The notes under the pieces: generated by a model | Databases searched by the model: none | Told to the model about the DNA's origin: nothing | The model's input: only the letters and a program-made list of their open reading frames with translations | Shown here: positions 1 to 64,000 of the stretch, in pieces | Layout of the letters: each line of letters begins with the position of its first letter | Numbering within the stretch: the first letter of the stretch is position 1 | Program-made: the position numbers and the translations under genes | Assembly (NCBI GenBank): GCA_000004985.1 | Contig: GG738848.1 | Strand: one strand, 5' to 3' | Length of the DNA stretch: 64,000 nucleotides | From: Naegleria gruberi | Taxonomy: Eukaryota

Positions 1-904
1 CCTTGTTATCATCATGCTGAAGGTTATGTAGAAGGGAATTAATTTTCGAGTGTTCATCTCTGATCGATTGAAGAAGATCGAGTGTGCTATTGTTGTTATC
101 TACTGCTGTTGAGGTTGACAATTGTTTGAGATTGTTTGAAGAGTTGGGTTGTTCTTGATGATGGAGATTAGTAAGAGAACCATCCAATGTATAGATTGAG
201 AAGGTCTCTCCTTCTTCACTTGTTGTTGAAGTGCTACTATGACTTGAATTACTATAGGAAAGTGCATGGTGATACTTTCTTTGGGGAGGTTCTAATATAA
301 TTTCATTGTTGTTGTCTTGTTCTTCATGATGTGATGATGATGAATTCATTACATTTCTTGAATAAGAAGGTTGAATAGAAAATGCTTCCATGTGAATAGG
401 TTCAACCAATGTTTCCTCCAATTTACCAATTATTGATTTCTCATAATGTTGATTATCACATCCTGATGGAGGTGTAATATCTGGTTGTTGCTGATGATTG
501 TTTTTTTCACAAAGAGAGGAAATAATTGATGGAGAAATCTTAGACAAATCAATTGTACTTGCATTCAGCATTTCAATATTCTCTCCAATAATATTATCTT
601 TAGTTTCTAATGCTTTTTCTTGACAAGTTGAATCGCCTTGTTTCTTCTGCATGTTGTTGAATGGGTTTGTTTGCATTTTCTTATTAATTTGGTTGTGAGA
701 GTCTGGCAACGAATCATGCAGCTGCTGAGAAGACATTCCAATAAATTTACCTTTCGTATAATTATTTTCTTCTGCATCCTCAATAATGTCCACAATAACA
801 ACACTATTGCTTGAAGATCCGTGGTCGGCCGAATAGGAGAAATGTTTCTCTTGATTATTTGTCTTGCTATTTATGTGACTTGTTTTGAAATTCATAAAAT
901 TCAT
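1..904 (-). CDS. Hypothetical S/N-rich protein, N-terminal part. The gene continues beyond the window start.
   Basis: Hand translation of the minus strand from the ATG at 902-904 (MNFMNFKTSHINSKTNNQEKHF...) stays open with no stop for about 300 codons to position 1. An in-frame stop lies about 22 codons upstream of the ATG. The ORF track omits it because there is no stop inside the window. No recognisable domain. Confidence 0.4.
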   Translation of the reverse strand, partial: MNFMNFKTSHINSKTNNQEKHFSYSADHGSSSNSVVIVDIIEDAEENNYTKGKFIGMSSQQLHDSLPDSHNQINKKMQTNPFNNMQKKQGDSTCQEKALETKDNIIGENIEMLNASTIDLSKISPSIISSLCEKNNHQQQPDITPPSGCDNQHYEKSIIGKLEETLVEPIHMEAFSIQPSYSRNVMNSSSSHHEEQDNNNEIILEPPQRKYHHALSYSNSSHSSTSTTSEEGETFSIYTLDGSLTNLHHQEQPNSSNNLKQLSTSTAVDNNNSTLDLLQSIRDEHSKINSLLHNLQHDDNK

Positions 905-1603
905 TTTGGCTATTGGATGAGAACAGTTAGTAATTTGATAAGAAGTGATTTAATATATATTGAAAAGATGATGAAAAGAATGTTCAGAAGTAATGATTGC
1001 AATAAAACGTTACTAAGTAACTTTAATAATAGATTCTGAGAGAGATATAAACAACATGAGCAGTGTGGGTAACAAGGTTTAATGTTGCCACACTTTTTAT
1101 GAGATATATATTTGACAAGAGAATAACCAACAGACAACCCAAGCTCTATTTTTAATGTTATCACAACAGGTTCTTTTGTTGGTAGTAGTTGGGTGTGGGT
1201 TTGAGTATTGTGAATTAGTTGAATTGGGAGTTTGTTGTTTCTAAAGTGCTCTGGGTGATGTCTTGATACTGTTTTATTAAATTGAAGCGTTATTGGATAA
1301 TGAAATGAATTTTCATGCCTTATCTAGTTTCTTTTAATGTAAATAACTGAAGAATTTGATTTAAGGATTGACTGTATTCAATCTGAATACTTGATAAATA
1401 TAATATCATAAATAACGAACTCAATAGGTACTGTAATAATCTTCCTATTGGTTCCTTAATATTACTTCCTTTTTACCACATCACATTTCAAGATCTGTTC
1501 ATTGTTCAAGAGTCTTTTCATAAATCATCGATAGGAAGCTATGAACTTTTAATCAAAAAAAAAGAATTTACATTGCCAATTCTTCTTCTATAACGTCGTC
1601 ATC

Positions 1604-4600
1604 ATGTCCCAACAACAACAACAACAACAGGAGGAAGAAATTGATCCAACATTGTTGAATTATAGAAACTTGACATTGTATGTAAAAAAGGGTGAAAGTA
1701 AGGATGTTGTCTCGGCATTGATCAGAGAGAATGAAAGTTCAAGTCAATCATCCTCTTCCGAAGATATTCAAAATAATGTGGAGGAGGCTTTTTCCAAGAC
1801 TGTTGATGAATCTACATTCCGAATTGAAGAATTAGATGAGGAGAGTTTAGAAAAATTATTAGCAGAATTATTAAAAGATCAAGATGATCAAGAAGTGTCA
1901 ATTCAACAAAATTATCTAATGAGAGAACAATCACTAAAACCTCCAGAACCTGGTACTGTTGAAATTAAACAACAAGTTGAATTTCCTCCTAAATTAGATC
2001 AATTAGAAACTGCCATAAATTCTGTAGGAAATTATCTGGCAGAAAAGGCAACAGAAAACAAGAAACAAGAAACAAACTTTAAAATCATTAGATCTGTTCC
2101 AACTGGAAAGCAAAATTCGGAAATAAGTTCAGTACCATTTATTTCCATTACATTTAGTCATGATATGATTGAAGAATTTGATGGAGAACCAAAATCATTT
2201 GAAGAAATTGATTTTGTTGAAATTAGTCCAGTCACTGAAAATGTTAAGGAAGGAAAATGGAAATGGATTGGAACTAAATCTTTAGTATTTCAACCAAGAT
2301 TCAGATTTGATAGATCTAATGAATTCACTTACAAGATTCTGAAAGAAAAGACCAAATCTGTGTTTGGTAACACGATTGAAGAAGATTTGGTGGTCACTTT
2401 CAAAACGCCAACATCACGCACTCTCTCAGTTATTCCTTCGTCAACAAGTTTCCCAATTTCCGAACTTCCTTTCATTTTCCTTCAATTTGATCAAGATATG
2501 GATAAGCAAAGTGTTCTTGCACATTTGTCAATAACAGTTTCTTCTAAATCTATTGGTGTAGAAGTATTAGAAGAAACATCAATTATTTCCAAAATGTTGG
2601 AAGATTTGGATTATGCTAAAAAGTTTCCATATGTTTTTGGATCATACAATAGATGCCTTCAAGGCACATATGACCCAAAGAGGTGTATGTGGCTGAAGTT
2701 GCATATTGCCAATGAAACTTTACATGCTGGAAAGGATTATCCAAAAATTGGATTAGGAGAATATTTGAGTATTTTATTGAAAAAGGGGTATAAGAGTTTG
2801 GAAGGACCAATACCGTCAGCTCATGAATACTCGACAGGTATTTATGGTTATTCCAAAATGGCAGTCAACTATCATTACCCAAAGAAACATTTATTTTATA
2901 ATGATATTTATCCAGGATGTTCATTTACTTTCAGTTTCAACAATCCAATTGATTTGGACAAGATAGAAAGTATTGAAACATTTGTCCAAGTTGAACCAGC
3001 CATTAAAAATTATAAGGTAACTTGTAATGGTAATAGTATTGTAATATCTGGTGATACACTTGCTAGAGAAAAGTATCGTGTGAAAATATTGAAAGGTGTC
3101 CCTGATATTTATAATCAAAGCTTGGAAAATGAATATGAAGCAACTTTTGAAGTGAGCGGAGAAGATAGAGAATTCAACATGACTCTTTCAAACTCAACAA
3201 TTATGCCACCTTGCTTGTTTGATTCACAAGATCCTTTTCTTTACTTTGATTCTGTAAATATTCAAGAAACTCATGTTATTATTAATCAAGTTGATCCTGT
3301 AGAAATGTACAAGGAAAGCTCTTTTCCCAAGTTAGCTGCAAAAACAGTATTTAATTCATATGATAATTATGATTACTTTGATTGGTATCCTCGTAAACCT
3401 CACAAGATTGGAAAGGAAGTTTTTGATCAAAAGGTAAAACCTGATAACTTTGTAAAAGATAGAACAGTTTCAACCAAGATTATGTTATCTCAATATCTCC
3501 AAAATGGAAAGACTGGATCTCTACTTGTTCACATCAAACCAAAGAGATCTATTTTATACAACTTATTTAATGGATACGAAACCAAGTGGATTCAAGTTTC
3601 AAATTTGTGTGCTGATATTATTAGTATCACAGGAGAGAAGGCAGCAGTTTTTGTTACTGATTTCTCAACTGGAAAACCAGTTCCAAATGCCACAGTAACT
3701 TTATCCTATTCTACCAATAATACACCAACGAAAGATGAAGACTTGAATATTATCTCAACAAGTGAAACAACAAATGAAAATGGAATGGCCTTCTTTTCCT
3801 ACAGTCGTAATTATCACACTGTTTTGATCATTTCAAAAGATCAAGATCAAGTTGTGTACACAAATCCAACAATTTACTCTCATTCAATCCGAACCGACAC
3901 AATTTCTGCTCATATATTTAATGATCGTGGTCTTTACAAGCCAAATGAAAATGTACATATCAAAGGTTTCCTTAGAGATATCAAGTACAATTATGAAAAG
4001 GGTTCTGAGAACTATGGCACCTATTCTATTAGAGAACCATCCACTGAAACTAAAGCTACCTATGAAGTTCAGGATTCTCGAGGTGTCAAATATTTGGATG
4101 GAAAGATTGAATTGAGTCCAAGTGGATCCTTTGTATTGGATTTAACTGTTCCTGATAATGCTAATTTGGGTTCTCATTCCTTGACAATTTGCTATGGATC
4201 TAGAAAATTTAACCACACTTTCAATGTTCAAGAATTTAGAACAAAAGAGTATACAGTTTCTAGCAGCATTATTCCTTCATCTGATAAGGTGGATTTGTTT
4301 ATTGGTGACAAATTGGTAAATAAGGTCAGCGCAAAGTATTATAGTGGAGGTGGCTTGTCCAATTCCCAAGTTAACTACCAGTTCAACACAGAACCTGCAA
4401 CCTTTAATCCAGAAGGATGGAGTAATTATGTCTTTCAAGATACAGATCTCAGAAATAATTACAAGCTCAATACTCTTATTGAAAATATGAAATCCAAATA
4501 TCAAGTATATCAAAGCTTTAACAGTGCAACTGACCCAAGCGGAGATGATCATGCCTTTATGCAGTTGTGGGATCCAGAAAAAATAGTAACTGGTCCAATA

Positions 4601-7600
4601 AGCATTAATTGTAAAGCAAATGTTCAAGATATTAATAGACAAACACAAGGAACATCTAGTGAGGTTATTCTCCACTCTTGTAAATACTATGTTGGTATTC
4701 GCTGTACAAAGAGAGTTGTTATGAAATCTGATGAAAATATTGACTGCTTTTTCATTGTTACAGATATTAGAGGTAAAATTGTAAAGGATATTCCAATATC
4801 TGTAAAATTGGTCAAGTTTGGTTATGATTCTAGGGGTTATGAAAGATGGGAAACCACTAAACCAATCAAGGAAATTAATCTAACCTCTCAAAGTCAACCA
4901 CTTCTTCATACATTTACCCTCAATGAAAACACAAATGATACTGCCTATGGAGAGTATGCAATTTTGTGTGAGGTAAAAGAGAGTGAAAGACCAAAATTTA
5001 GATCAGGCATTAACAGATGTAGTATTCCAATTCGTAAATTTGGATTTAAAGAACACTTGACATCAAAGGGATACACTTCACTCAGCACCAATTCACTTGA
5101 GTTAATTTCTAATAAGTTTGAAACTGATGAATACGAGCCAGGTGAAGAAGCCAAAGTTTATATTGTCTCTCCATTCAATGGTGAGTGCTCTGGATTTGCC
5201 TGGGTTTTATGCAATGGATTAATCAAAGAGGAGAGATTTGACATTACTAACGGTATCCATGAATTGACCATTCCAATCAAGAAGGAATACAGACCTAATA
5301 TCCAAGTAAGAGTTCAATTATTTGGTACTGAAAATTATATTGATGTTGATGACAAGCCAAGAGTTAATCCAGCTCATGCTACTGGATCTCTAACCCTCAA
5401 TATTTCCAAAACCGAGCATGAACTCACTGTAACTGTCACTCCAAAGGACCCAATCTTGAGTCCAGGAAAAGAAACTGATGTCAGCATTCTCGTAAAAGAT
5501 AAGCAAGGAAACAATGTACCAAATTGTGAGGTTTGTTTAATTGTTGCTGATCAAGCTGTTTTAGATATGGCCAATTATTCAGTTACCAATCCAATGTTTA
5601 CCTTTGTTTCTAACAATTCATGCTCTGTTGATTTCTCTTCGATAAGAGATCGAGTAAGATATTGGTTATATCCAAGAAAAAATCAAAGAGATGAAGAAAT
5701 CTTAGCAATAAGACAACAGGCACTCCCTTCTTCAAATTTGTGTGCATGTGATTTAGCTGGTTGCAGTGGAGGCCGTTCGCGTAAATGCTGTGAACAATGT
5801 GGCGAATGTGACGATATGGCTCAAAAGGAATGCAAACGTGAAAAGTGTTGCAAGAAGTCATGTGGCCTTGCATGTTTTTCTAGAAGGTGTTGTAAAAATA
5901 GTAAGGATTCATATGATGGCTCACGATCCCAGATGCCATCTATGGATGATAGAAATGGTGTATTTGAAATTCGTTCCAACTTTAAACCAGATGCTGCTTT
6001 TATTGGATTTGCTCAAACTGATGAAAATGGATTTGCAAAGCTTGATTTCAAATTGACTGACGCTCTCACAAAATTCAAAGTTACAGCTGTTGTAAATGCT
6101 AAACAAGACATGTTTGGTATTGGTAATTCTGCAATTACTACCAATTTACCTATTGCAGTTAGACCATCACTTCCAAGATTTTTGAATTATGGAGATTTAT
6201 GTGATTTGACCTATGTTTTACAAAATCAAACAGATTCTGATTTGACTCTTTCTCTAGTATGTAATGTATCAAATCTCAGAATATTCAATGGAAAGGATAA
6301 AAATCAACGTAAGAAGGGATATACTGTTGTGATACCAGCAATGGGAAGAAAAGAAATTAGAATTCCTGTTCAAGTACTCAAATGTGGTAAGGCTCTTATC
6401 AATCTTGGAGTTAGAGTGGTTAGAGCCATAGCCAAGAATCCTGAAAAGCAAGAACTTGCCGATGGAATGGTTGGATGGTCAGATGCTGTCAAGAATGATT
6501 TCAAAGTTTTTACTCCAGTAACCAATGAAGCTTTTGCAACGTATGGAGATGTTAGTGCAGAAAGTGAAACTATTGTACAACCAATTTCACTTCCATCCAA
6601 GAATCTATTGGCACACTTTGGTGAATTCACTGTTAGTACTTCAACAACAGCTCTATCTACATTGACTGATTCTCTCATTTATCTCTATTCTTATCCATAT
6701 GAGTGTAATGAGCAAATTGCATCAAAGATTTTAGGTATAGTTTGTATGAAGGAAATGATCTTACAATTCTACACACCTGAAGAGCTTCAAAGATTGATGG
6801 AAATTTCTGGAGAGGAAGAAGTTAACACATTCATTAATTCCAACCTTGCTAGATTATTTGATCGTCAAAGATATGACGGAGCATTCTCATATTGGGATAG
6901 CAAGTTAATTGGAGACCCATTCTTAACATGTCATGTAGCTCTCTGTTTTGCAAAATGTAAATCTGAAGGTTACAAAATCCCAGATCAAATATTATCAAGA
7001 ACCAAATCCATTTTGAAGAATATTTCAAGTTTATTCTTCTTTGGATTCCTTTGGCCAAGATGTATTAAGGATACAATCAAATCATATGCCTATTATATTT
7101 TATCATTGTTAGCTGAAAGTGAATCTGATAAGGGACAGGTAATTTCTCTGTGTGAAGGAATTCTTGATCATTATAATAGCATTACTGAATTGACACAAGA
7201 ATTATCCCCAGAGACTGCTGCCTACCTTGCTATGGCCATTCATAAATGTAAGAAGGAACCAGTAACAGAAGAAAAGAAGGGCTTCTTTGCTAAATTTACT
7301 AAAGAAAAGATAACTATTCATCAATGGTTGGATGCTATCAAATCATACTTTAAGGAAAATGTAACAATTGACTCTGGAATTTATGCTCACTTTATTACTC
7401 GTTATGAAGATAATGAACTCGCTCAAATGGTTATGTTGCATTCAAATACCAGAACTGATGCTGTTGTTTTGGGTTGTTTGATGGAAATTGATAGAGAAGA
7501 CAGTAGTGATATTATTCAAAAATTGGTGAGAAGTTTGTTGGCTGCCAGAAATGCAAACAGATATGGTCGTTGGTATAATACTCAAGAAAATTCCATCTGT

Positions 7601-8404
7601 CTCATGTCACTCACTGATTATTTCAAGATATTTGAGAAGGAAATTCCAGATATGAATGTCAATACTTGGCTAGTAGATAGTACTAGACCAGAGGAAACTG
7701 TATTCATGGGTAATCAATCTTGGAAGGGAAGAAGTAGAGAAAAGAAAACTACATCATTACCACTTGTTGCCTTTGTTCCACGAAGTGATATTGAAAAGGA
7801 AGTTGTTAATCCAAATGAAAGTGATTCCAAAAAGTCATTCTTGTTGACAAAGAATGGAGCTGGAAGGCTTTACTATAGAATTGCTCTTTCATACACTCCT
7901 GAAGAATTGGTTCTCAAAGCTCTTGATAAAGGATTTTCAGTTTCCAGAGTTTACGAAGCAATTACCAACCCAGATGATGTCAAGTTTGACAAGTCAACAA
8001 AAACATGGAAGGTAAAATCAGGAGAATTAGTCAGAGTAACAGTTACGATTTGCAATCCAACCAGAAGATACAATGTAGCCATGGTTGACAAGATGCCAGC
8101 AGGTTTCGAAGCTGTCAATCCAGAACTCGATACACAATTTACTGATTTTGGAAATAGTGGCAATGAAGAAGATTTAGCAAACAAATACTATTACAAATGG
8201 TTCGAAAATCAAAACATTAGAGATGAAAGAGTTGAAGCATTCAGCAGAATCTTATATGAAGGCTCCCACGTTTACAGTTATATATGCAGAGCTACTACGA
8301 TTGGATCATTTGTTTCTCCTCCAGCTTATATCGAAGAAATGTACTCTCCTGAATGCTTTGGAAGAAGTAAGACTGAGTTTGTGCAAGTTTATGATAAAAA
8401 ATAA
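1604..8404 (+). CDS. Alpha-2-macroglobulin / thioester-containing protein (TEP/CD109-like) family, 2266 aa, single exon.
   Basis: Uninterrupted ORF with a real ATG (MSQQQQQQQEEE). A2M N-terminal-type segment (...CEVCLIVADQAVLDMANYSV...). Thioester-like motif YPYECNEQ, compared with canonical GCGEQ. Cys/Lys-rich insert at the bait-region position (LCACDLAGCSGGRSRKCCEQCGECDD...KCCKKSCGLACFSRRCCKNS). No N-terminal signal peptide is visible. Confidence 0.6.
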   Translation: MSQQQQQQQEEEIDPTLLNYRNLTLYVKKGESKDVVSALIRENESSSQSSSSEDIQNNVEEAFSKTVDESTFRIEELDEESLEKLLAELLKDQDDQEVSIQQNYLMREQSLKPPEPGTVEIKQQVEFPPKLDQLETAINSVGNYLAEKATENKKQETNFKIIRSVPTGKQNSEISSVPFISITFSHDMIEEFDGEPKSFEEIDFVEISPVTENVKEGKWKWIGTKSLVFQPRFRFDRSNEFTYKILKEKTKSVFGNTIEEDLVVTFKTPTSRTLSVIPSSTSFPISELPFIFLQFDQDMDKQSVLAHLSITVSSKSIGVEVLEETSIISKMLEDLDYAKKFPYVFGSYNRCLQGTYDPKRCMWLKLHIANETLHAGKDYPKIGLGEYLSILLKKGYKSLEGPIPSAHEYSTGIYGYSKMAVNYHYPKKHLFYNDIYPGCSFTFSFNNPIDLDKIESIETFVQVEPAIKNYKVTCNGNSIVISGDTLAREKYRVKILKGVPDIYNQSLENEYEATFEVSGEDREFNMTLSNSTIMPPCLFDSQDPFLYFDSVNIQETHVIINQVDPVEMYKESSFPKLAAKTVFNSYDNYDYFDWYPRKPHKIGKEVFDQKVKPDNFVKDRTVSTKIMLSQYLQNGKTGSLLVHIKPKRSILYNLFNGYETKWIQVSNLCADIISITGEKAAVFVTDFSTGKPVPNATVTLSYSTNNTPTKDEDLNIISTSETTNENGMAFFSYSRNYHTVLIISKDQDQVVYTNPTIYSHSIRTDTISAHIFNDRGLYKPNENVHIKGFLRDIKYNYEKGSENYGTYSIREPSTETKATYEVQDSRGVKYLDGKIELSPSGSFVLDLTVPDNANLGSHSLTICYGSRKFNHTFNVQEFRTKEYTVSSSIIPSSDKVDLFIGDKLVNKVSAKYYSGGGLSNSQVNYQFNTEPATFNPEGWSNYVFQDTDLRNNYKLNTLIENMKSKYQVYQSFNSATDPSGDDHAFMQLWDPEKIVTGPISINCKANVQDINRQTQGTSSEVILHSCKYYVGIRCTKRVVMKSDENIDCFFIVTDIRGKIVKDIPISVKLVKFGYDSRGYERWETTKPIKEINLTSQSQPLLHTFTLNENTNDTAYGEYAILCEVKESERPKFRSGINRCSIPIRKFGFKEHLTSKGYTSLSTNSLELISNKFETDEYEPGEEAKVYIVSPFNGECSGFAWVLCNGLIKEERFDITNGIHELTIPIKKEYRPNIQVRVQLFGTENYIDVDDKPRVNPAHATGSLTLNISKTEHELTVTVTPKDPILSPGKETDVSILVKDKQGNNVPNCEVCLIVADQAVLDMANYSVTNPMFTFVSNNSCSVDFSSIRDRVRYWLYPRKNQRDEEILAIRQQALPSSNLCACDLAGCSGGRSRKCCEQCGECDDMAQKECKREKCCKKSCGLACFSRRCCKNSKDSYDGSRSQMPSMDDRNGVFEIRSNFKPDAAFIGFAQTDENGFAKLDFKLTDALTKFKVTAVVNAKQDMFGIGNSAITTNLPIAVRPSLPRFLNYGDLCDLTYVLQNQTDSDLTLSLVCNVSNLRIFNGKDKNQRKKGYTVVIPAMGRKEIRIPVQVLKCGKALINLGVRVVRAIAKNPEKQELADGMVGWSDAVKNDFKVFTPVTNEAFATYGDVSAESETIVQPISLPSKNLLAHFGEFTVSTSTTALSTLTDSLIYLYSYPYECNEQIASKILGIVCMKEMILQFYTPEELQRLMEISGEEEVNTFINSNLARLFDRQRYDGAFSYWDSKLIGDPFLTCHVALCFAKCKSEGYKIPDQILSRTKSILKNISSLFFFGFLWPRCIKDTIKSYAYYILSLLAESESDKGQVISLCEGILDHYNSITELTQELSPETAAYLAMAIHKCKKEPVTEEKKGFFAKFTKEKITIHQWLDAIKSYFKENVTIDSGIYAHFITRYEDNELAQMVMLHSNTRTDAVVLGCLMEIDREDSSDIIQKLVRSLLAARNANRYGRWYNTQENSICLMSLTDYFKIFEKEIPDMNVNTWLVDSTRPEETVFMGNQSWKGRSREKKTTSLPLVAFVPRSDIEKEVVNPNESDSKKSFLLTKNGAGRLYYRIALSYTPEELVLKALDKGFSVSRVYEAITNPDDVKFDKSTKTWKVKSGELVRVTVTICNPTRRYNVAMVDKMPAGFEAVNPELDTQFTDFGNSGNEEDLANKYYYKWFENQNIRDERVEAFSRILYEGSHVYSYICRATTIGSFVSPPAYIEEMYSPECFGRSKTEFVQVYDKK

Positions 8405-8454: not shown

Positions 8455-11012
8455 TTACTCCATACCAAGTGTTGGTTGGTTACTTTGCTTTTGCATAATC
8501 TTTTTCCATTTTCTGTTTGTGTGATCCATATGGAAGAATATTTGTCTCTTTTCGTCATTGCCATATTCTTCGTGAATAAGAACTTTGTCTTCAAGAAGGC
8601 CATCATCAGGAACACGACCAGTAAGAAATTGGAAAATCTTAGTTCTAGTTTCCTCAGTCACACGATTACAATCTTTCAAAATATTTGTGTTCAAATAAAG
8701 TTCAACTCTTTGTCTTCTTTCTTCATCATTTGCTTGAGGTTGTTGTGGAGGTTGTTGAGTTGGTTGTGGCTGTTGTTGTACTTGAGTATTTTCGAATGGT
8801 TGTTGATAATTTGGTGGATATTGTGGTTGTCTCATTTGATTTGGATTAGCTTGAGGCCTACTCATCATCATCATTTGATTATTCAATCCATTCATAGTGT
8901 TATTATCAGGTTGTTGGTGGAATCCCATCATGTTAGGGAATGCAGGGTTACCAATGGAAGGTAATAAATTGTTGGTTGGAGGTCGAGCATTAGATGGTTG
9001 AGAAGAATTAATACCTAGTAATTGAGTAAAGCTTTCTTGTCCCTTTCCAATACCACCAGGTAATACTCCTGGAGGAGCCATTAATCCAGGTTGTTGACTT
9101 GTGGGTTGAGAAGGATTTTGTTGATTGGCAAAGAATGGATTTGTCAACAAGCCAGACATGTTGGAATATTGATTTTGAGGGAAGTGTGAAAATCCTCCAG
9201 GAGTACCAGGATTAAACATTGGAGTAAGATAAGGTGCAGTATGATTCATGAGTGTTGTACTGAATAATGCTTGTTGATGAGGGTTAGTAGGATTGGCATG
9301 CATTGGTTGATTAATATTAGGATCTTGAGCTTGTGGCATCATATTATCAGCACCTTGTGGCATACCTTGTTGAGCATTAGCAGGATTGTTCTTTCTTCTC
9401 TTTCTACCAGGACCTGCACCATTTGCTAATTGAGCTTGTTGTGCAGCAACCTTTCTTTCTTCGGCCTGTTTCTTCTTAGCTTCTTCCTTTGCTTTCTTCT
9501 TCTCGATTTTTTCTTTTTCCTTCTTTTCCTTCATCTCAATCTTTTCAATCTTCTTTCTTTCTTTTTCTTGAACCTTTTGTTCATCTGTCATTTGTTTGGT
9601 GGAGGTTCTCTTCTTTTCATTTAATTGTTGTTCTTTCATTCTTTGAAGAGCAACAGAGTCATCTAGAAAAACTGATCTCGATGTGGAAGCTGACGAAACA
9701 GGAGTAGAAATGAGTTGTGTACCATGAGTAGGAGGATTTTTGATAAGGGTTGTCTTAGGTGTGGAAGGTAGATTGTTAATTTTCTTGATACCAGTGAGTT
9801 TGTTCTTATTTAACATAGTTGCACTTGTTGGTGTGTGGGTATTAGAATTGTATGTTTGTGGTCTAGTTGGAGTAAGTTTTTTAAGAGGAGAAAGTTTAAC
9901 TCCAACATTCTTCTTAGCAGACTCACTCTCCAATTCATCAAGAACAGAAAGCGGTTCAATTAAATTTTTACAAGCAGATGGTCTTAGGTTGAAATGTTTG
10001 TTAGAAACTAAACTACATGAGTGAGAACTGTACAAGGATCGGCCATTAGCCATCTCTTCCAAGTAGTGTTTCTTTTCGTTGAATTCTTTTGTGAGTTGTT
10101 CATTGCCCTCAGAGGAAACGTTCAAATATTTGAAAACGTTTGGTTTAAGAGTAGCAAAAGGAGATTGGGAGTTTTTAGAATCATCGTTCATCATATGAGC
10201 ATCATTATCTTCATCCTTTAGTGATAAATTACGGAAATACTTGATAGCTTGTTGGAAATATCGTTGAGGAGAATCTTCTTGCTCAATAGGGGCACTAATA
10301 GCCAATTCATTCAGGATACTAGTTTGAATATCAGTTCTAATACATGAATGTTCTGGGAATAAGTACAGTATTTCTGCCATCATTCTAACCCAATCATCTT
10401 CTCCATGGGTACTCTCGATAATATTCTGTATTTGTGCAATAATGATAATAACGAAAGTTGTTGGTTTTGTAGTGTGATGGTTTGAAGGGAGTGATGGGAG
10501 TAAAATGCATTTCGTAAAATAAGCAAGCCAACACCCAAAAAAAATAATAGAAGGGTTCAAAAAGTAGTTAGTTTGGTATGAAGGTTAATTGCATTCGGTT
10601 TGCTTTCAAAACTTACCTTGAATAATGTACAAAAGTGAGATGCCAATGTAGGAGACATTTGCTTCTTCTTTACAGAAAGGCAACACATTATGAATCGAAG
10701 TTTTATCAGTGGAGAGTTTGAAACACCCAAATTATAAAAATTTTCATAGTTATGATGAGTAGAGTCTGTCAAGAACAACTCTAGTGTTTCTTCATTGATT
10801 TGGGATGCGATACGATCCGAACTCCAGTCTGTATTCAGCTTGGAACATAACCACAATTCAATTTCTGGTAATTCTTTCTTGTGTTTTATACCACCATATG
10901 CTGAGGATGTATTTGTGTAGGAACCATCATGATGATGATCATCTATTATTGCGTCGTGATGAGAGCCGTTATAGTCATCTTGGTGGTGATAGGGTGAGGG
11001 TGTATCAATCAT
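8455..11012 (-). CDS. Q/P/N-rich nuclear-type protein with a K/E-rich charged coiled coil, 2 exons (10616-11012 and 8455-10425). Function unknown.
   Basis: Real ATG at 11010-11012 (MIDTPSPYHHQDDY...). GTAAGT donor after ...HFCTLFK at about 10615. Acceptor AAATACAG at about 10426, giving ...TLFK|NIIESTHGEDDWVRMMAEILYLFPEHSCIRTD. Long KEKKEKEKIEKKKAKEEAKKK block, then PQ-rich low complexity. Structured C-terminal about 90 aa (RVELYLNTNILKDCNRVTEETRTKIFQFLTG...). Confidence 0.5.
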
Positions 11013-23558: not shown

Positions 23559-26500
23559 TTAAATGTGATACAATTCGTGAATCATGAAAAAGTATTCAAT
23601 TGGACAATATAATTTGAGTTTTCGTACCATCTCTTCATCTAATTTGATCGTTATCAATAAATCTCTACATTGATTGATAATTTCAAATAATTGTTCAATA
23701 ATGAAAGGTTTTAAATGTTCATGTTCCATCAAATCAATAAAAATTCTCATTCCTTTCAAAATTTCATCAGAGGCAACAGAATTTAAACTCAACGAGCTTA
23801 TAGTTCCATTACTATTGTTATTGGAATTTTGAATCAGAGAAGTTTCATAATTATAAGAATGATTAATGGATTCATTCTTCAATGCAGTAATATCATTTAG
23901 AACATTAAATCTACTTGTTATTGTTTCTAATCCTAAACGAACAATTTGATGTTCCATACATGGTTGTATTAAACCTTTCAATACTTGATTAGGAAAATAT
24001 GAAATATGAGTTGTAACATTAGAATATCCAAAATTTAAAGAATCAACAATTAATGAAGATGCAGCACTAATATTTCCAAATAAACTTGTTAAGGTTGATT
24101 TACGTCTATTGTTAGATTGTCCAGATGATCCAATAGTATTATAATTACCAGCATTGCCACTATTATTTGTCTGTTGTTGAGAATCTTGAGAATTAATATT
24201 ATTATAAATTGAATAATTTGGAAACATGGCACTTGTTGGTGAATTCATTCCTCCTCCAACTCCACCACCCATAAATGTACCACTATTATTATTGCTATTG
24301 CTTGTAGTATTAGAAGTAGGAGGATATAACAAGTGAGAAAGTTGAACTGTCCACTCACTAATATTCACACCACTATTATTCATTCCACCAACACTACTAA
24401 CATTACCAAAACTTCCACCTATACCACCTATATTATTATTACTTGAATTATTATTACTACCACCACCTATATTACCAATATTATTATTATTACCAGTATT
24501 AATATTATTATTACCAGTATTATTAATATTATTATTATTATTACTTGAACCACCATTAAAAGATTGTGAAGTTGTTGCAATTAATCTTTTTAAAATTGTT
24601 TGTTCAAATTCTTCTTTTTGTTGTTGATTAGTTCCAAATTTAATGAAATGAAAAATGTGATTTAATAATTTTTGAGTATTTGAATTTAAAATAAAAGAAG
24701 AAATTCCATCAATTAATTGTCTTTCAATAATAGTATTACTAAATAAAGATAAAGTATTAACATTTGATAAATTTTGATCTTTTCTAAAAATTTCATTTAA
24801 ATAAAAACAAGCATAAAATCTAATTATAAAAGGTTGATTTCCATTTTGAATTAAATCCATAAATCTTTTTATAACTCTTTCAGATGAAATTGGTAAAATT
24901 GATAAAACTTTAAAAGTTTTAATAATTAATTCATTATTAATTTCATAATTATTTCTATTATCATCATGAATAAATAATAATAATAACATTGATAAATTAT
25001 TTAATAATTGTTCATGTAAATTATTTTTAATATTTCCATTTTTAGTAGTAATATTACTATTTATAGTATTATCATTATATTTATAGTAATTAATTAAATA
25101 TTCTTTCATAATTTTTAAATAATGTTTATAAACAAGTAAAAGTAAAATTGTTTGTTTAAATTCAGATAAAGGTTGTTGTGAAATTCTAATTAAAGATTTA
25201 AATAAAATTGATAATAAATCACAAAATATTCTTTCTATAATAATTGGAACTCCTTTACATGTAATTGTATAATTTCCATATATAGGTAGTAATTTAGTTA
25301 CTATATATAGACATGATAAATGTTGTTCTAAATTAAAATTTTGATCAAAATAATATAATTCTATATTTGTAGGTATTGAAGCAATTCCTTTTTGTTCATT
25401 ATTATCTAATAAATTTGGTAATAAATATGAAATACATAATTTTAAAATATGTGAAATTTTACCATTTGAATTTAATTCTAAAAATTCAAATTGATTTAAT
25501 AAATTTTTATGTGAAATTTCCATTTCTGTATTATTATTACCATTTTTATCAGAATGAGAAGAAGAACAAGATGATGATGATGAATCTGAAATATCATCTG
25601 AAATATCATCTTCATCTTCTGAATTTACTATATTTGTTAATAAAATTGTAATTGATTTTGCTAAATTTAAAAATCTTGGAATTAAATAATTTTTTTTAAT
25701 TAAAATATATTCCCTTTTTAAATATTGATCATTTTCAATTTGTAAAATATATTGATTATTATTAATATTATTAAATAAATTATTTTGATTATTTAAAATT
25801 CTTTCCATAATTATTAATAAATGAATTTCCTTATTAGTAGAAATAGTTTCAATTAATTTTACAAAATTTAAATCTAAAGAATTTAAAATACAATTATCAA
25901 TAATTGATAAAATACTTGTTTTAGAATTACTATTTATAGTAAAATTAAAAGGTACATAAATGGAAATTAATTTACTCATGTAAGATTCATCTTGTTCAAA
26001 AATATCAATAAATTTAATTAAATGATCATAAAATAATTTGTTAAATTCAATTGAATTATTATAAATTTTACCTAAAAAATTAAAATTAATTAATTTTTTA
26101 AAATCATCCATAATTTTATCTAAAATTAAATTATCAATAATTAAATTTAAATTTAATAATTGTAATAAAAAATTAGAACAATTAATTTTTTCATTATTTT
26201 TATAATTTTTAAATAAAAAATTATATAATTGATAAACAATTTTATAACTATCATAACTTGTTTTAGATTCCAAATTTGGAGAAATAAATTCATCTGGATT
26301 TATATTTTGAATTATATTAATTAAAGTTAAAATTAAATTAAATAAAATTATAATTCCTTCATCATTTTTATAATTATTAATTAAAATTAATAAATCATTA
26401 ATTGACTTTTTTAGTAATTTCATATAAACATTTAAAATTTGTCTATTTTGTATAATTTCTATATTTGAATTTAAAATAATTAATAATAAAAATGGTGTTG

Positions 26501-29500
26501 TATTATAAATATTTAATAATAAATTACTCATTTGTTCAAATAAATAATTTAATTGGCAATGTTCAATTAATTTAGTAATTCCAAAACAAGTATGTACATA
26601 ATTAGAAATATTAAAATTTGTAATATTAAAAAAATCAGAATCATTAAATTCACTTAAATTAATTGGTTGTGATAATTTTAAAGAAGGTGTAATTGACCTT
26701 CTAAAAATAGATTTTGTTTTCTTTTTTTCTAAATTTATAATTAAATCTTCAGAAATTTTCTTATTTTTTAAAAAATCACTTAAAATTTCTATAAATGTAT
26801 TTGAATTTAAATCATTATTATTAAAATAACTTGTTTCATTTTTAATTAAAATTCTTAAAGCAATTTGTTGAATACTTGTATATTTAGAAGTAACTGCCCT
26901 TTTTAGATATTCTCTATATATAGTTTCAATTTCTTGTATATCTTTTAATTCTCCATTTATATTATTAAGAACATTACTTCCATTTATATTATTATTATTA
27001 TTATTATTAGTAGTATTATTAGTAGTAGTGGATGATGATGATGGTGATGAATTATTCCATAAATTACCACTATTAGATTTATTAGATGATAATCCATTTA
27101 AAATACTACTTGTATGATTATTCATACTATTATATTGTCTTGAATGTTGTTGTTGTTGTTCTTTCTTATTTCTTATATTCATTATATTCATTATACTATT
27201 ATTACTATTATTATTATTATTAGATCTACTACTATTATTTTTAAAAGAATTAGAAGTAGATGATAAATTATCAACACTATTTGAATAATTTGTTGTTGAT
27301 GATGAAATTTGTCTAAAAGAAGATAATTCATTCTTTCTTCTAATTTGATTTGTAAATTGTTCAAGTTTATCCAATGATAAATTTCTAATTAAAATTCTTT
27401 CAATAATTAATTCTTCAGNNNNNNNNNNNNNNNNNNNNNNNNNNNNNNNNNNNNNNNNNNNNNNNNNNAAATTGTGGTAAATATCCTAATAATGGAAATT
27501 GTTGTGATGCAATTTGATGATCATCTTCATAATATTGTTGATAAATAAAAACTAATTGTCTCCAAATTAGGCGATACAATTGTGGTCTTTCAGAAAAGAA
27601 ATCATCGGGTAATTTTCTAAACTTTTCAATTTTGGAAACTGATAAATATTCTGCTAAATCTAACATGAATTCCATAAATTCATTAGATGTTAATATTTTT
27701 TCCTTTTTTGTAAATTGTTCAATATTATTAAAGGAAATTCTCTTTCTTTCATCACTTTCTTTTAATGAAAGTCTATTTCCACTACTATTATTATTATTAT
27801 TAGTAGTAGTAGTATTAGTAGTAGCACTACCTCCTCCACTATTACTATATATACTTGAATTTGAGATAACACCACCACTTGAAGAATTTGTTTGATTGTT
27901 AAATAAATTCAAATTCTTTGAATCTCTTTTACCCATTGAAAATCTTAAACTTCTACTTCTGACACGTCCACCACCAGCACCAACACCACCACTAGATGTT
28001 GGTGTTCCACTACCACCTACATAATTAGAAGTAAAAACACCAGTACCAGCACCACCACTATTAGTATTAGTATTATTTGGACTAATACTGAGTGAATGAG
28101 CCATAGCAGTATTGGAATCAGATGAATTTGGTATTAAAGTGGATGGAGTATTAGATGCTGAATTAAATACATCACTATATTGTTGTTCAATATTAGCAAA
28201 TAAAGAAGGTGTTACAACAACAACAAGTGAATCAGTTGATGAATCATAATCCATATGAGTTGATTGTTGTTGCTGCTGTTGTTGTTCAGATCCTCTTCTA
28301 AAGAATGATTGTGAATGATGATGTGATGATTGATTCATTCCAATACTATTATTACTATTAACATTTCCAAATAAATAATTATTAGATGCCAAATTACTTG
28401 GTAATAAATTCAAATCAGATGAAATGTAAAATTTGTTTAAAAATTGTTCTAACATCATTCTAATTGGTATTTCATTCATTTCAATTAAACTATTACTAGT
28501 ATTAGTATTACTATTAGTAGTATTAGTATTATTACTAGTATTATTAGTAGTAGATTCAATATTTTCCTGTTGTTTGAGTGCAAAATAATGAGCAAATGAT
28601 GGAATTCTAGCAATTTCCAAATATCTAAAATCATATTCATTCAATTCATTAAATAAAGTATTATATAAATTTAATGATCCACTATAATTCTTTTTATCCT
28701 TATTCTTTTTAACATTTGAATTGGCATTAATTGAAGAAGAAGAAGTGGATGATGAAGAATTTGATTGTCCTGAAACAATATTTCCTAAAATATTTGATAA
28801 ATTAGTAGAAATGAATAAATTAGGAGGAGGTGGAGCACAATTTTGTAAAAGAGATGAAATATTATTAATACCCATTGATTGAATATCAATAGTTTTTAAA
28901 ATATAATTATAATGTTGTGATTGATTAAAATTTGGATCTAATGGATGTTGTTGTTGTTGCTGAGTAAAATTTTGATTTTCAATAATATAAATGGTATTAT
29001 TTGTTAAATTTGATAATTGTGACATGATATTAAAATATTCTTGACCTTTAAAATGTTGAAAATGATCAAAAATTAAAATACATTTACCATTTAAAATTAA
29101 TTGTTTTAAATATTGTTGAATTTCCTTATTAAATTGTAAATGTTGTTTTTGTAAATTGTTTGCAGTTGATGAATTATTTCTAGAATTAAATCTTGGACTT
29201 TGTGTAAAACTACCAAAATTAGAATTTGAATTTTCATTAAATAAAATATCATTTGCTAATTTTATAACATTTCCAAAATAATATTCAAAACATCCTTGAA
29301 TTATTTTATCTATAAAATCATTTATATTTGGCATATTTAATATATTTCTTAAAGATACCATAATTGGTATTTTAAATAAACTATTAGAATGATTTGATAA
29401 TAATTGATTTAATAAATTATTATTACTTGCCATATTAGAAGAATTACTAGTATTTAAAGTATAAATATGTTCCATATAATATCTATGTATAGATGAAATA

Positions 29501-32500
29501 AAAAATGATAAATCTGAATCTGTAAAATTACAATTTCTACAATTTAAAACATAACATATACAAAGTGATGAATATTTGTTATATTGAAAATTATCATTTC
29601 CACCTCCTCCATTACCATTTCCACTATTATTACTTCCAATACTACTATATCCACTACTACTATTTACACTATTAATACTATTATATCTATTATTAGAAGA
29701 TTGTGTACTAAATCTATTATTATTATTATTATTATTATTATTACTGATATTATTACCGATATTATTGATATTATTATTGTTAATACTATTTCTATAATCG
29801 AATGAATTTGAATTATTTGAATCAATTAAATGACTTGATTGAAATAAAAGATCAAAATTTGTATTTCTAACACCAATAACAGCACCTCTCTTTCTTGTTT
29901 TAAAATTATCACCATCATTAATATCCATTGAAAATACATTCATTGACATTCTATTAGATGCTATATTAGAATAGCATGATAATCCAATTGTAGAAGAAGA
30001 AGAGGATGATGATATTATTGAATTAGATTGATTATTCATATTAATATTATTGGATTGATTCATATTAGTATTATTAATATTGGATTGATTGATAGATGTT
30101 GAAATGGTATTATTTAAAAATGGTGAATTAAATAGTGGTGAATTATTATTAGCAACACCTGAAGAAGAATTAAATGAAGAATTTCTTGATATTGAAATTG
30201 GTAATGAAGATGCAATATTTGATACATTAATATTACTTATATTTGTTGTTGTTATTGAAGTGGTAGTGGTGGTATTATTATTATGAATATTATTATTATT
30301 AATATTATTAATATTACTATTTATAGTAGTATTATTATTATTATTATTATTTAATAAATTATTTAAACTTGATGAATGTGAAAGTTTTCTTGAAGAAGAA
30401 AATTGATTTGATGATAAATAATTATTTTGAGGTGTAATATAAGAAGTAATTTCCAATTTTACTTCTTTTAAAAATCGAATATAATCAAATTTTCCTTTTA
30501 TAGAAAATATTAAATTATCTTCATCTTGAATTCTTTTAAATAAATCATATAACATTACATTCATATTATTTTCATTAAATGTTTCAGATTTATCTTCTTC
30601 CTCGTTTTCATTAAAAATATTACTATATATATATAAATTACTAAAATATTCATCCTTAAATGGAAAGTTTTTACAATTTTGTACACATTTTACAAAAGTA
30701 TAAATGGAAACATTATTTTCACTATCACTTGATAATAAAGTTTTTAAAACTTTTTCAGATTTTGAATGAAAAGCAGATTTTGTAAAAAAATAATAACAAT
30801 CTTTAAATTCATTCCAAGAAACTTTGTAATTTTGAGTTCCAAACATTTGATCCCAAAAATGTCTTGCTAATCTATAAATAATATAATAGGTAGATGTAAA
30901 TTTATGTATAAATGATAATGAATTTCCTAAATTAGTATTTCCTAAATTGGATGATTGATTATTCATTAAAATATTACTTAAATTAGAAGACATGGGTGAT
31001 GATGAAATCATTTGAATATTTCTAGGTGAAAAATCTAATCCATTATTATTATTATTATTATTATTTATATTTATATTATTTATATTATTTATATTATTAT
31101 TTATATTATTATGATCTATTAAATTTAAATTATATGAAGAAATTGATTGTATTGAATCAATATCTTTTTGAATTGATTCTAATGCAGATAAAATATCTAC
31201 TTTTTCATCCATACTTGTATTTATATTTCCATTAATGGATGTATTATTACCATTAATAGAATGATGATTGTGATGATTATTATTAATATTATTATTAAAA
31301 TTTGATTCTTTTCTTTCTTTTAATAAAAAATTTAAACATTCAGTTGCATTTAATCTTTCACTTGAATCTAATCTTAAACATTTATATACCAATTTTAGTA
31401 ATATTGAATGTCCTTTATCAAGTAATAAAGTTAATAAATTAAAAGATTGATTCTTATCAATACATTCACTTATAAAATTATCAATTACTAATTTAGTTTC
31501 ATAATTATTTGAACAATTAAATAATAAATCTCTTAATGAATCAAATCGACTTCTCCTTTTTTGTACAAGTAATTGTAATGCTACTATTCCTAATGCCCAC
31601 ATATCAACTGATTCATTATAATATTTACCATCAAATATTTCAGGTGCCATATAATTTTTAGATCCTTTTTTTAAAATTATTAAAATATTAAAATATTATT
31701 TATGGAAATTATTTAATATATATGGAAATTAATATATAAAATTAATATGAATAAATGAATATGAATGAATAAAACTTACCTGTTATACTCATAAGAGGTG
31801 AATCACCAACTTTAAATTCACGTGTTAATCCAAAATCAGATAAATAAATTTGAGCATTTTCAATAATTTCCTTATATGATAAATTTGTATCATTTGTTTT
31901 TTTAGATTGTAATAAAATATTATCAGGTTTCTAAATTATTTAAATATATTTATAAATATTAATAAATATTAATAAATTAAAAATATTAAAAATATAAAAA
32001 AACATACAATATCCAAATGTACTAATTTCCTTTTATGAAAAAATACCAAACTTCTAGTTATATCAATCATCCAATTTAATTTTAATTCACCACTAATAAA
32101 TTCATTTCCATAACTATTTGAAAAATTTAAAATAACATCTTCTAAACTTCCCAAATCACAACATGCCATTACAATAGATAATGCATATTCAATTTCACCT
32201 TTTAAATTATTTTTATATTCCTTATAGAATATATCATAGTGTGGTACTATACGAACTACTACTTGTTTATTGGAAGATGATGAAGATGATGAAGCATATG
32301 AAGATGAGGATGATGAAGCATATGATGCATATGATGAATTAAATTGATGATTAAATGTTGATTCAACATTACAAACTTGTAATATTAATTTAATTTGTTG
32401 TTCCAAATCACTTAAATTACTAATAGTTATACGTTTAATTGCTAAATTTATATTATTATTTTCATCCGTGGATCCATCATTATGTTGTTGTTGTTCTTGT

Positions 32501-62810: not shown

Positions 62811-62879
62811 ATTTTACAAGCACCAATCATTCTAATTGAAATGATGATTAAGCAAATTCAAAAGGAGTTAAATCTTTTA

Positions 62880-64000
62880 TTAACATTGTTCGAAACAGCT
62901 TTCATCCATAAGCAAGTCAGCATTAGAAGCAAAGATTGTATCAAGCTCTTCATTAGTTAAGAATGGATCCAACAGATCAGCAATAGTTTCATTATTTTCC
63001 AAGGTAAAAGTGAGATCTTGTTGATTTCCATCATCTTCAAAGAGTGAAGCTTCTTCTTGATCCTCTTCCAATAGTAAAGGTTCACCTCCTTCTACAATGA
63101 AGGATGGTGGAGATGTTACTGTCTTTATACTGGTAGGAAGTGTACTTTGATGTAGCAGTGTTGGTTGTTGAGTGGTAATTGAAGAAGTTTGAGGTATCAT
63201 TGAAGTAAATGATTGTTGTTGTATTGGAGGTGTAATAAATTGATTAGTATTACTGCTATTCATTTGATTATTCATCATTGAGGTAAGAGTTTGTTGAGGT
63301 TGTTGAACTCGATTAATAATATTATTATAAATAGATTGAATTGGTTCTTGTTGTGGTTGTGTTACACCAATATTATTAGGTTGACTATTCATTTGACTAT
63401 TCATTATTTGATTCATTAATTGTTGTTGTTGATATTGTTGATTATTTAATTGATTCATATTCATATTATTATTATTAATTAATTGATTATTTAAATAGCT
63501 AGTTGTAATATTATTATTGGATTGATTTGAAATATTAGAATTAGTAGTGAAAGAATTTTGAATTATTGGTTGTTGTTGTTGATTCATTAAAATACCATTA
63601 TTCAAATTATTCATATTATTATTATTCATATTCATGTTATTATTCATATTACTATTCATATTCATATTATTCATATTATTCATATTATTCATATTATTCA
63701 TATTATCAGAATGTTGTTGTAGTTGTTGTTGATGATCTGATTGATTTCCTCCTCTTAAAGTATTTTTAAACATCATTGATTGAGGTAATTTACTAATAAC
63801 TTCAATGTTATTTAATTTTCCTTCATAAATTTCACTTGCTGGAGCTTGATAAACATTTTTATCATCAAAAAATGTTATTGAAGTTTCATGAATTTTTAAA
63901 ATATTACTTGTTGAATGTTTTAAAGTATTAGAATTATTTAAAGTATTATTATATTGATTTAAATAAAGTAAATCTTCAATTTCCTTAATAAAATTACCAT
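62880..64000 (-). CDS. Q/N-rich protein with an acidic C-terminus, C-terminal part. The gene continues beyond the window end.
   Basis: The minus-strand frame is open from position 64000 (GNFIKEIEDLLYLNQYNNTLNNSNTLKHSTSNILKIHETSITFFDDKNVYQAPASEIYEGKLNNIEVISKLPQSMMFKNTLRGG...) through poly-Q/N to an acidic tail ...EGGEPLLLEEDQEEASLFEDDGNQQDLTFTLENNETIADLLDPFLTNEELDTIFASNADLLMDESCFEQC*. Contains (MNN)n encoded by a 9-bp tandem repeat. Confidence 0.4.
   Translation of the reverse strand, partial: GNFIKEIEDLLYLNQYNNTLNNSNTLKHSTSNILKIHETSITFFDDKNVYQAPASEIYEGKLNNIEVISKLPQSMMFKNTLRGGNQSDHQQQLQQHSDNMNNMNNMNNMNNMNMNSNMNNNMNMNNNNMNNLNNGILMNQQQQPIIQNSFTTNSNISNQSNNNITTSYLNNQLINNNNMNMNQLNNQQYQQQQLMNQIMNSQMNSQPNNIGVTQPQQEPIQSIYNNIINRVQQPQQTLTSMMNNQMNSSNTNQFITPPIQQQSFTSMIPQTSSITTQQPTLLHQSTLPTSIKTVTSPPSFIVEGGEPLLLEEDQEEASLFEDDGNQQDLTFTLENNETIADLLDPFLTNEELDTIFASNADLLMDESCFEQC
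63662..63706 (-). repeat. Five perfect tandem copies of a 9-bp unit (TCATATTAT) inside coding sequence, with degenerate copies upstream.
   Basis: Plus strand reads TCATATTATTCATATTATTCATATTATTCATATTATTCATATTAT. On the minus strand this encodes NMNNMNNMNNMNNMN. Confidence 0.7.

Follow-up and report, generated by a model that had tools for sequence, protein, structure and literature searches.

A bacterial-type alpha-2-macroglobulin of Naegleria gruberi with no classical secretion signal and a cysteine-rich bait region

Characterized proteins of the alpha-2-macroglobulin (A2M) family, including A2M itself, TEPs, complement, and the bacterial proteins ECAM and MagD, have their site of action outside the cytoplasm (PMC3735191, PMC4498604). 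Two classes have been distinguished in bacteria, class 1 being encoded beside pbpC and class 2 in a mag-type operon (PMC3735191). Class 1 comprises Escherichia coli ECAM (YfhM), a periplasmic inner-membrane lipoprotein of about 1,650 amino acids whose gene lies next to pbpC (PMC3735191), and the A2M of Salmonella; class 2 comprises E. coli YfaS and Pseudomonas MagD, which lacks the cysteine of the CxEQ thioester motif, has a signal peptide, and is encoded in a six-gene mag operon (PMC3735191). Bacterial A2Ms use CxEQ, in the form of CLEQ in ECAM (PMC4498604, PMC3735191), and the thioester is capped by two motifs of the C-terminal macroglobulin (MG) domain, RDDR and EXMY, in a pocket that also holds the tyrosines of a Y-x-Y motif (PMC4498604). 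In the monomeric trap, cleavage of the bait releases a lock and is followed by coupling through the thioester (PMC4498604, PMC3328433). Here we describe a gene of this family in a stretch of 64,000 nucleotides of Naegleria gruberi DNA (contig GG738848.1, assembly GCA_000004985.1), which we call the window. The gene encodes a bacterial-type A2M that has no signal peptide and carries a cysteine-rich segment at the bait position, and we consider it fairly probable that the protein is a horizontally acquired thioester protease trap with a cysteine-rich bait, operating without classical secretion.

The gene, NAEGRDRAFT_45966, is complete and consists of a single exon, one unbroken reading frame of 2,266 codons at positions 1604 to 8404 of the plus strand, and its product is 100% identical to N. 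gruberi XP_002681967.1. An in-frame stop codon at 1550 to 1552, shortly 5' of the ATG, shows that the open reading frame (ORF) is not simply longer at its 5' end. N. gruberi has a paralog, NAEGRDRAFT_59848, with 74% identity to the window protein, and orthologs with 51% identity are present in N. fowleri (FDP41_008308) and N. lovaniensis (C9374_010671), the copy numbers being two in N. gruberi, one in N. fowleri, and two in N. lovaniensis. The Naegleria ORFs are intact and encode 2,266 to 2,381 amino acids. The second N. lovaniensis copy, C9374_010623, is 99% identical to C9374_010671 and lies on the same contig (PYSW02000044.1); the gene was either duplicated very recently or is duplicated only in the assembly. 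The host scaffold of the N. gruberi gene is 712 kb long, and the other genes of the window encode eukaryotic proteins (RGS, myosin TH1/PH, protein kinase, PP2A-A HEAT, and Pol beta-like proteins). Since these neighbors are eukaryotic and the GC content of the ORF (34%) falls within that of the nearby ORF-bearing parts of the window (31 to 37%), the A2M gene is a resident nuclear gene and not a contaminant.

A Pfam search placed the domains of the window protein in the canonical A2M order, with MG2 at residues 769 to 875 (E = 4.1e-15), A2M_BRD (PF07703) at residues 1172 to 1322 (E = 1.8e-16), A2M (PF00207) at residues 1466 to 1550 (E = 4e-11), and bMG10 at residues 2110 to 2250 (E = 5.7e-30), in addition to weak matches to bMG3 and Big_1, thus confirming the proposal of an earlier note on this DNA that the ORF encodes a thioester protein of the A2M superfamily. 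The NCBIfam search of the same protein gave no match. AlphaFold models, built as two halves with a predicted local distance difference test score (pLDDT) of 75 and 71, resembled the native structures of Salmonella A2M (PDB 4u48) and ECAM (5a42) best, so that structure prediction, which the earlier note had proposed as a check, likewise returned the A2M fold. Activated ECAM, metazoan A2M, TEP1, and complement ranked below the native bacterial structures in the fold search, and the C-terminal half model reached a TMq of 0.50 against native Salmonella A2M and ECAM versus 0.29 to 0.35 against the activated forms. In the PDB, Salmonella A2M and E. coli ECAM are also the sole solved relatives that are found by sequence.

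Along the gene, the N-terminal 160 or so residues (positions 1604 to 2083) are acidic, polar, and mostly disordered, and carry neither a signal peptide nor an anchor, as judged from hydropathy and AlphaFold pLDDT. They are followed by a chain of Ig-like/MG domains (2084 to 5116), defined by Pfam MG2 at 3908 to 4228, by the AlphaFold N-terminal half, which is beta-rich from about residue 160, and by PDB matches, again best to 4u48 and 5a42. The bait-region domain A2M_BRD (5117 to 5569) aligns to residues 753 to 926 of Salmonella A2M, and the bait itself (5663 to 5962) is followed by the A2M domain, equivalent to MG8 (5999 to 6253). The alpha-helical thioester domain (TED; 6650 to 7633) corresponds to a helical block at residues 583 to 910 of the model and aligns to the TEDs of Salmonella A2M and ECAM, and the C-terminal MG domain, or bacterial MG10 (7931 to 8353), aligns to Salmonella A2M residues 1516 to 1635.

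The thioester site lies at positions 6692 to 6715 and reads YPYECNEQ (residues 1697 to 1704), that is, CxEQ preceded by the two pocket tyrosines, and it aligns to YPYGCLEQ of 4u48. The earlier note had taken CNEQ for a variant of the thioester motif. However, bacterial A2Ms are characterized by CxEQ, and in the closest bacterial subfamily the motif is C[S/A/N/T]EQ: among 51 complete bacterial relatives the x is serine in 33, alanine in 11, asparagine in 5, and threonine in 2, one of the 51 having the exact string YPYECNEQ. Judged by these alignments, CNEQ is thus the normal state of a bacterial-type A2M rather than an anomaly. Downstream, an RDER motif (IRDERVEAF, residues 2205 to 2213, positions 8216 to 8242) aligns to FRDDRF of Salmonella A2M, and an EEMY motif (EEMYSPE, residues 2244 to 2250, positions 8333 to 8353) aligns to its ESMYAP. 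The thioester site, as YPYEC[N/T]EQ, and both RDER and EEMY are conserved across the Naegleria proteins. Since the pocket residues of Salmonella A2M are also kept, the trap machinery, composed of CxEQ, Y-x-Y, RD(D/E)R, and ExMY, looks intact at the sequence level.

We then compared the protein with its relatives. In a homolog search of 5.8 billion proteins, from which the best 120 matches were listed, all matches following the Naegleria proteins were bacterial, and no other eukaryote was among these 120. The closest bacterial matches among those listed are about 2,030 amino acids long and share 27 to 28% identity over 93 to 99% of the query. A locus scan with one genome per bacterial species, in which an alignment of 13 sequences served as the query, recovered at least 594 bacterial loci with relatives sharing 33 to 37% identity over the C-terminal 640 residues, mainly in Acidobacteriota (Pyrinomonadaceae, Blastocatellia), Chloroflexota, and Myxococcota. 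A scan of metagenomes yielded two GC-rich bacterial loci (55 to 57%) and no further eukaryote-like copies. One viral-classified contig of 21 kb (L086, IMGVR_UViG_3300020029_000886) carries an A2M fragment with 40% identity to query residues 344 to 662, which is probably bacterial or prophage-flanking sequence. Because the protein has a bMG10 domain and its non-Naegleria relatives among the best 120 matches are exclusively bacterial, it is a bacterial-type A2M and not a metazoan or dictyostelid A2M/TEP.

The bacterial relatives form a subfamily of about 2,050 amino acids (our P0005 to P0015 and L004 to L083) that is collinear with the window protein and has the motifs YP[YF][ED]C[SANT]EQ, RDER, and EEMY. 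The order of the domains is the same (Big_5, bMG3, MG2, A2M_BRD, A2M, bMG10), although both Big_5 and bMG3 score more strongly in bacteria: Big_5 stays below the threshold in Naegleria, where bMG3 gives a weak match. Many of the bacterial members combine a Big_5-type N-terminal Ig domain with the thioester motif. They have a signal peptide, lipobox, or anchor, a bait of 31 to 100 residues without cysteine, and a median of 6 cysteines per protein, whereas the Naegleria proteins have no signal, a bait of 100 to 128 residues with 13 to 17 cysteines, and an additional disordered acidic N terminus. In the two bacterial loci that were checked (L010 and L035), the neighboring genes are unrelated to each other and belong to neither pbpC nor a mag operon. 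The parent bacterial subfamily thus appears to stand alone, and, since neither kind of neighbor was found in these two loci, it may represent a third, uncharacterized class of A2M.

Compared to the described systems, the Naegleria proteins share with bacterial A2Ms the chain of MG domains ending in bMG10, a disordered bait in the BRD, CxEQ with Y-x-Y, and RDER/EEMY. The signal or anchor at the N terminus, present in all 62 bacterial relatives checked, is missing from the four Naegleria proteins, and the gene lies in a eukaryotic context rather than next to pbpC or a mag operon. The class 1 proteins ECAM and Salmonella A2M (4u48, 5a42, 4ziq), the best PDB matches, have in common with it CxEQ, Y-x-Y, RDDR, EXMY, a disordered bait in the BRD, and, by analogy, a monomeric trap mechanism (PMC4498604, PMC3328433), but the Naegleria protein exceeds ECAM by about 600 residues, lacks a lipobox or signal, has only about 16% identity, and reads CNEQ instead of CLEQ. 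With the class 2 proteins MagD and YfaS it shares the multi-MG-domain A2M fold, while differing from MagD in that CxEQ is kept and the gene stands alone. Metazoan A2M, insect TEPs, complement C3 to C5, and CD109 have the same superfamily fold (Foldseek E = 1e-42 to 1e-35) and the same logic of a bait or activation site, a thioester, and a conformational change, but their identity to the Naegleria protein is only 10 to 13%, their pocket residues are located differently (PMC4498604), and they have GCGEQ, signal peptides, and a receptor-binding C-terminal domain where Naegleria has bMG10. In the window protein we found neither GCGEQ nor a signal peptide, and Pfam detected neither of the metazoan-type domains PF07678 and PF07677, so that the metazoan reading implied by the label A2M/TEP in the earlier note did not stand. 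Another amoeboid protist, Dictyostelium, encodes CPRas2, a bacterial-type (COG2373) A2M-like protein of more than 3,000 amino acids into which a circularly permuted Ras-like GTPase is inserted (PMC2430557); it is likened here to the Naegleria protein by its published description only, and its fusion to a Ras-like GTPase suggests an intracellular location, which would make it a precedent for a probably intracellular bacterial-type A2M in an amoeba.

The taxonomic distribution, with relatives in hundreds of bacterial species of several phyla versus a single eukaryotic genus, indicates that the gene was most likely gained by horizontal transfer from bacteria. Once in Naegleria, it has been maintained as a functional sequence: a Nei-Gojobori comparison of the N. 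fowleri and N. lovaniensis orthologs over 2,344 codons gave a nonsynonymous rate (dN) of 0.145, a synonymous rate (dS) of 0.79, and hence an omega of 0.18, showing that the gene is under purifying selection.

We next considered the two features that set the Naegleria proteins apart, the first being the absence of an export signal. The window protein starts with MSQQQQQQQEEEIDPTLL, which is hydrophilic, and its Kyte-Doolittle (KD) hydropathy, averaged over 19 residues (KD19), has a maximum of 0.22 in the first 120 residues and does not exceed 1.3 anywhere in the protein, so that it has neither a signal peptide nor a membrane helix. Across four Naegleria proteins, the KD19 maximum in the first 120 residues ranges from 0.06 to 0.37. 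In contrast, a hydrophobic N-terminal segment is present in 62 of 62 bacterial relatives, 11 from the database search and 51 from genomes; it is either a signal anchor or a signal peptide, in many cases one with a lipobox-like cysteine. In the window protein this end is predicted to be mostly disordered, with a pLDDT mostly below 50 over residues 1 to 160. It begins with a poly-Gln tract encoded by a perfect (CAA)6.7 repeat at positions 1610 to 1629, which the N. gruberi paralog, starting with MKIEEEID, does not have; the extreme N terminus is thus evolutionarily labile. The lack of a signal peptide, which had been noticed in the window protein alone, is therefore real and lineage-wide, none being found in the four Naegleria proteins.

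The second feature is the bait. Delimited by the conserved flanks VRYWLYPRKNQ and FEIRSNF, the bait region of the window protein (residues 1354 to 1453, positions 5663 to 5962) is hypervariable and contains 14 cysteines per 100 residues. All 14 belong to a Cys/Lys-rich cassette of 54 residues (residues 1380 to 1433, positions 5741 to 5902), compared to a cysteine content of 1.5% outside the cassette (P about 6e-14 in a binomial test). The cassette falls between the A2M_BRD and A2M/MG8 domains and coincides with the gap at residues 926 to 1000 in the Salmonella A2M alignment, in line with the bait of ECAM at residues 923 to 942 (PMC4498604). The earlier note was thus right to place an unusual cysteine-rich segment exactly where the bait is expected, but of the Cys/Lys-rich composition that it described only the cysteines are a family feature, seen in all four Naegleria proteins, while the lysines are specific to the window paralog. 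As in other baits, the segment is predicted to be disordered, AlphaFold pLDDT being 26 to 36 over residues 1347 to 1462 approximately. In the four Naegleria proteins the bait measures 100 to 128 residues and contains 13 to 17 cysteines (10 to 14%); in 60 bacterial relatives it measures 31 to 100 residues (median, 68.5), is rich in Ala, Gly, Glu, and Met, and contains no cysteine at all. The cysteine richness of the bait is thus specific to Naegleria and conserved across the lineage.

This conservation is striking in view of how fast the segment diverges. Identity in the bait core is 21% between the N. gruberi paralogs versus 76% elsewhere in the protein, and 35% between N. fowleri and N. lovaniensis versus 77% elsewhere; dN is 0.69 in the bait versus 0.13 elsewhere, and the bait and the N terminus are among the fastest-evolving parts of the protein. 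The cysteine counts of the four baits are 14, 13, 17, and 13, with neither the positions nor the parity of the cysteines conserved. Since cysteine richness is kept while positions and parity vary, the alignments point to selection on the composition of the bait and not on a defined disulfide fold. The bait holds CC, CxC, and CxxC patterns, which fits a metallothionein-like or S-acylated composition, and the redox-active or metal-binding bait suggested by the earlier note is possible. A Pfam search with the cassettes of the four Naegleria proteins, at E values up to 10, returned no family. Anaphylatoxin (ANATO), metallothionein, EGF, granulin, and similar domains were accordingly rejected as detectable homologs. 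In particular, the six-cysteine helical ANATO domain (PF01821), which complement has at the bait position, gave no match, and the Naegleria segment is predicted to be disordered. A retained intron was likewise rejected as the origin of the cassette, which has a GC content of 0.44 versus 0.34 for the ORF, no stop codons in the four proteins, and no tandem repeat.

From these features we propose the following mechanism. The protein would fold in the cytoplasm of the amoeba, or in any case outside the classical secretory route, a location we infer from the absence of a signal or anchor; the bacterial export signal or membrane anchor would have been lost, and the Ala/Gly/Glu-rich bacterial bait would have been replaced by a longer, disordered, fast-diverging segment with 10 to 14% cysteine. 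A thioester between Cys1701 and Gln1704 would form spontaneously and, in the native state, lie buried between MG10 and the TED. It is plausible that the protein can fold and form this bond without being exported, since ECAM deprived of its signal peptide or lipoprotein sequence still reacts with methylamine and proteases (PMC3328433). Cutting of the exposed, disordered bait by a protease would then free the MG10-TED lock, and the exposed thioester would couple covalently to the protease, making the protein a monomeric trap like E. coli ECAM. Likely targets would be proteases that leak from lysosomes or phagosomes, or those of ingested or intracellular microbes. Because the cytoplasm is reducing, the thiols in the cysteine-rich bait would there be free, metal-bound, or S-acylated, and would probably tune the accessibility of the bait or its location. 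In a functional sense such a protein would recall the clade-B serpins, intracellular suicide-type inhibitors without a signal peptide that guard the cytoplasm against leaked proteases and are unrelated in fold and chemistry. The bait resembles metallothioneins and the palmitoylation clusters of cysteine-string or SNAP-25-type proteins. Tentatively, and with distinctly less confidence than for a trap as such, we suggest that Naegleria, including N. fowleri, may have turned a periplasmic bacterial A2M into a cytoplasmic trap against microbial or phagolysosomal proteases, gated or localized by a metal-bound, redox-sensitive, or S-acylated bait.

Several points weigh against this proposal. In a neighbor-joining tree (50 bootstraps, 60 bacterial ingroup sequences), the Naegleria proteins were monophyletic in 50 of 50 bootstraps and formed a long branch sister to all 60 bacterial sequences, being nested within them in 20 of 50 bootstraps; the donor lineage therefore cannot be named, and the direction of transfer rests on the taxonomic distribution. 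Neither a publication on these Naegleria genes nor experimental data on expression, localization, or the thioester were found in the searchable literature. The absence of a classical signal is no proof of residence in the cytoplasm, as the protein could be released by unconventional secretion or in extracellular vesicles; once exposed, the thioester might be quenched by thiols and amines of the cytoplasm; and a cysteine-rich segment could also suit an oxidizing extracellular setting, with the cysteines in disulfides. Finally, a signal-peptide-like mini-ORF (1155 to 1244, plus strand; MLSQQVLLLVVVGCGFEYCELVELGVCCF), 360 bp upstream of the A2M gene, can be joined to it in frame through GT/AG pairs, leaving a secreted N. 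gruberi isoform formally possible.

The alternative that survives best, although we regard it as unlikely, is that the protein lacks a signal and is nevertheless exported, in vesicles or by unconventional secretion, and acts extracellularly or in the phagosome against proteases of prey or host, as periplasmic bacterial A2Ms do. It has in its favor that every characterized protein of the family acts outside the cytoplasm, as mentioned above, and that a high cysteine content suits an oxidizing compartment. However, the window protein has no hydrophobic segment anywhere, and inspection of its termini revealed neither an N-terminal MG for myristoylation nor a C-terminal CaaX or KDEL. Moreover, with an odd number of cysteines in three of the four baits and no conservation of their positions, the cassette runs contrary to a defined disulfide fold.

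Somewhat less probable still is that the trap was lost and the A2M scaffold reused, the cysteine loop being the functional part, either in buffering or sensing metals or redox state, like a metallothionein, or as a multiply S-palmitoylated membrane anchor. Cysteine richness is kept in four proteins whose baits can barely be aligned, indicating that composition is under selection, and the CC, CxC, and CxxC patterns with their basic neighbors, in motifs such as KKSCGLACFSRRCC, resemble metallothioneins and cysteine-string anchors; a substitute anchor would also be in line with the fact that the bacterial relatives are anchored or exported and that this anchor was lost. On the other hand, a mere scaffold would need neither the intact CxEQ, YxY, RDER, and EEMY motifs nor the purifying selection that acts on the gene as a whole, and no Pfam match links the cassette to metallothionein or another cysteine-rich family. 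Nor does a modified bait preclude that the protein still acts as a trap.

The earlier note had also raised the possibility of a missed upstream exon encoding a signal peptide, in which case the real protein would be an ordinary protease inhibitor that is secreted, with the bait cysteines engaged in disulfides. We consider this less probable again. The candidate is the mini-ORF mentioned above, which begins with MLSQQVLLLVVVGCG and has a hydrophobic core with a KD10 of 2.99. Splicing from a GT at 1218 or 1230 to an AG at 1564, 1630, or 1633 would be in frame and yield MLSQQVLLLVVVGCGFEYCEL-EEEID..., the acceptor aacaacag/G at 1630 looks reasonable, and the model of the paralog begins just before the same EEEID motif. 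Yet the frequency of signal-like mini-ORFs of this kind in the GT-rich window is 1.3 per kb per strand, and one is also present in 24.5% of dinucleotide-shuffled versions of positions 905 to 1603, so that this mini-ORF is at chance level. The only in-frame donors, tta/GTTGAA and gga/GTTTGT, look weak by eye. The orthologs also speak against a hidden exon: both the N. fowleri and the N. lovaniensis gene consist of one exon, with only 150 and 175 bp separating them from the end of the previous gene on the same strand, and no signal-like ORF was found in these gaps. The N termini of both orthologs are longer and hydrophilic, and both begin with MISS; an alignment of the upstream DNA of the two species was too noisy for the start codon to be located. 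That the gene is fused to the one before it in these two species was rejected, since the preceding gene is ended by a stop codon and has no signal peptide either.

Bacterial contamination or a decaying pseudogene, brought to mind by the fact that the nearest non-Naegleria relatives among the best 120 matches are without exception bacterial, has a negligible probability and is already refuted by the eukaryotic neighbors on a 712-kb scaffold, a GC content of 34% versus 55 to 57% in the two metagenomic bacterial loci, the orthologs and paralogs in three Naegleria species, and intact ORFs with an omega of 0.18.

Looking at the surroundings of the gene, the 699 bp between positions 905 and 1603, which hold the mini-ORF, are a divergent intergenic or promoter region separating the A2M gene from a gene on the minus strand whose start is at 904. 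This upstream neighbor (1 to 904, minus strand) encodes a Ser/Asn/Gln-rich protein beginning with MNFMNFKTSH, and the downstream neighbor (8455 to 10560, minus strand) is an ORF of 701 amino acids; no Pfam domain was found in either. The upstream neighbor in N. gruberi is unrelated to those of the N. fowleri and N. lovaniensis orthologs, indicating that local synteny is not kept among the three species. Farther along, the most AT-rich part of the window (23559 to 31650, minus strand; GC content, 18 to 23%) contains two very long ORFs of 1,271 and 1,411 amino acids, one of which includes a partial protein kinase domain. The window contains 271 N bases in total, within 27001 to 28000 and 62001 to 63000, which are assembly gaps, and the first of these may split one gene into the two long ORFs.

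Overall, the loss of an export signal together with a hypervariable bait packed with cysteines is genuinely unusual and is conserved within the lineage. The bait represents a natural experiment in bait design, in which thiols, metals, or acylation may tune specificity, and its chemistry is relevant to engineered A2M capture systems. If the proposed cytoplasmic action and gating or localization by the bait are correct, this would be, to our knowledge, the first A2M-family effector that works in the interior of a eukaryotic cell and has a bait that can be switched chemically. It would also provide a clean case of a bacterial defense protein reused by a bacterivorous eukaryote, and a signal-less A2M in the free-living amoeba genus of the brain-eating N. 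fowleri would bring thioester-based capture of proteases into the cell.

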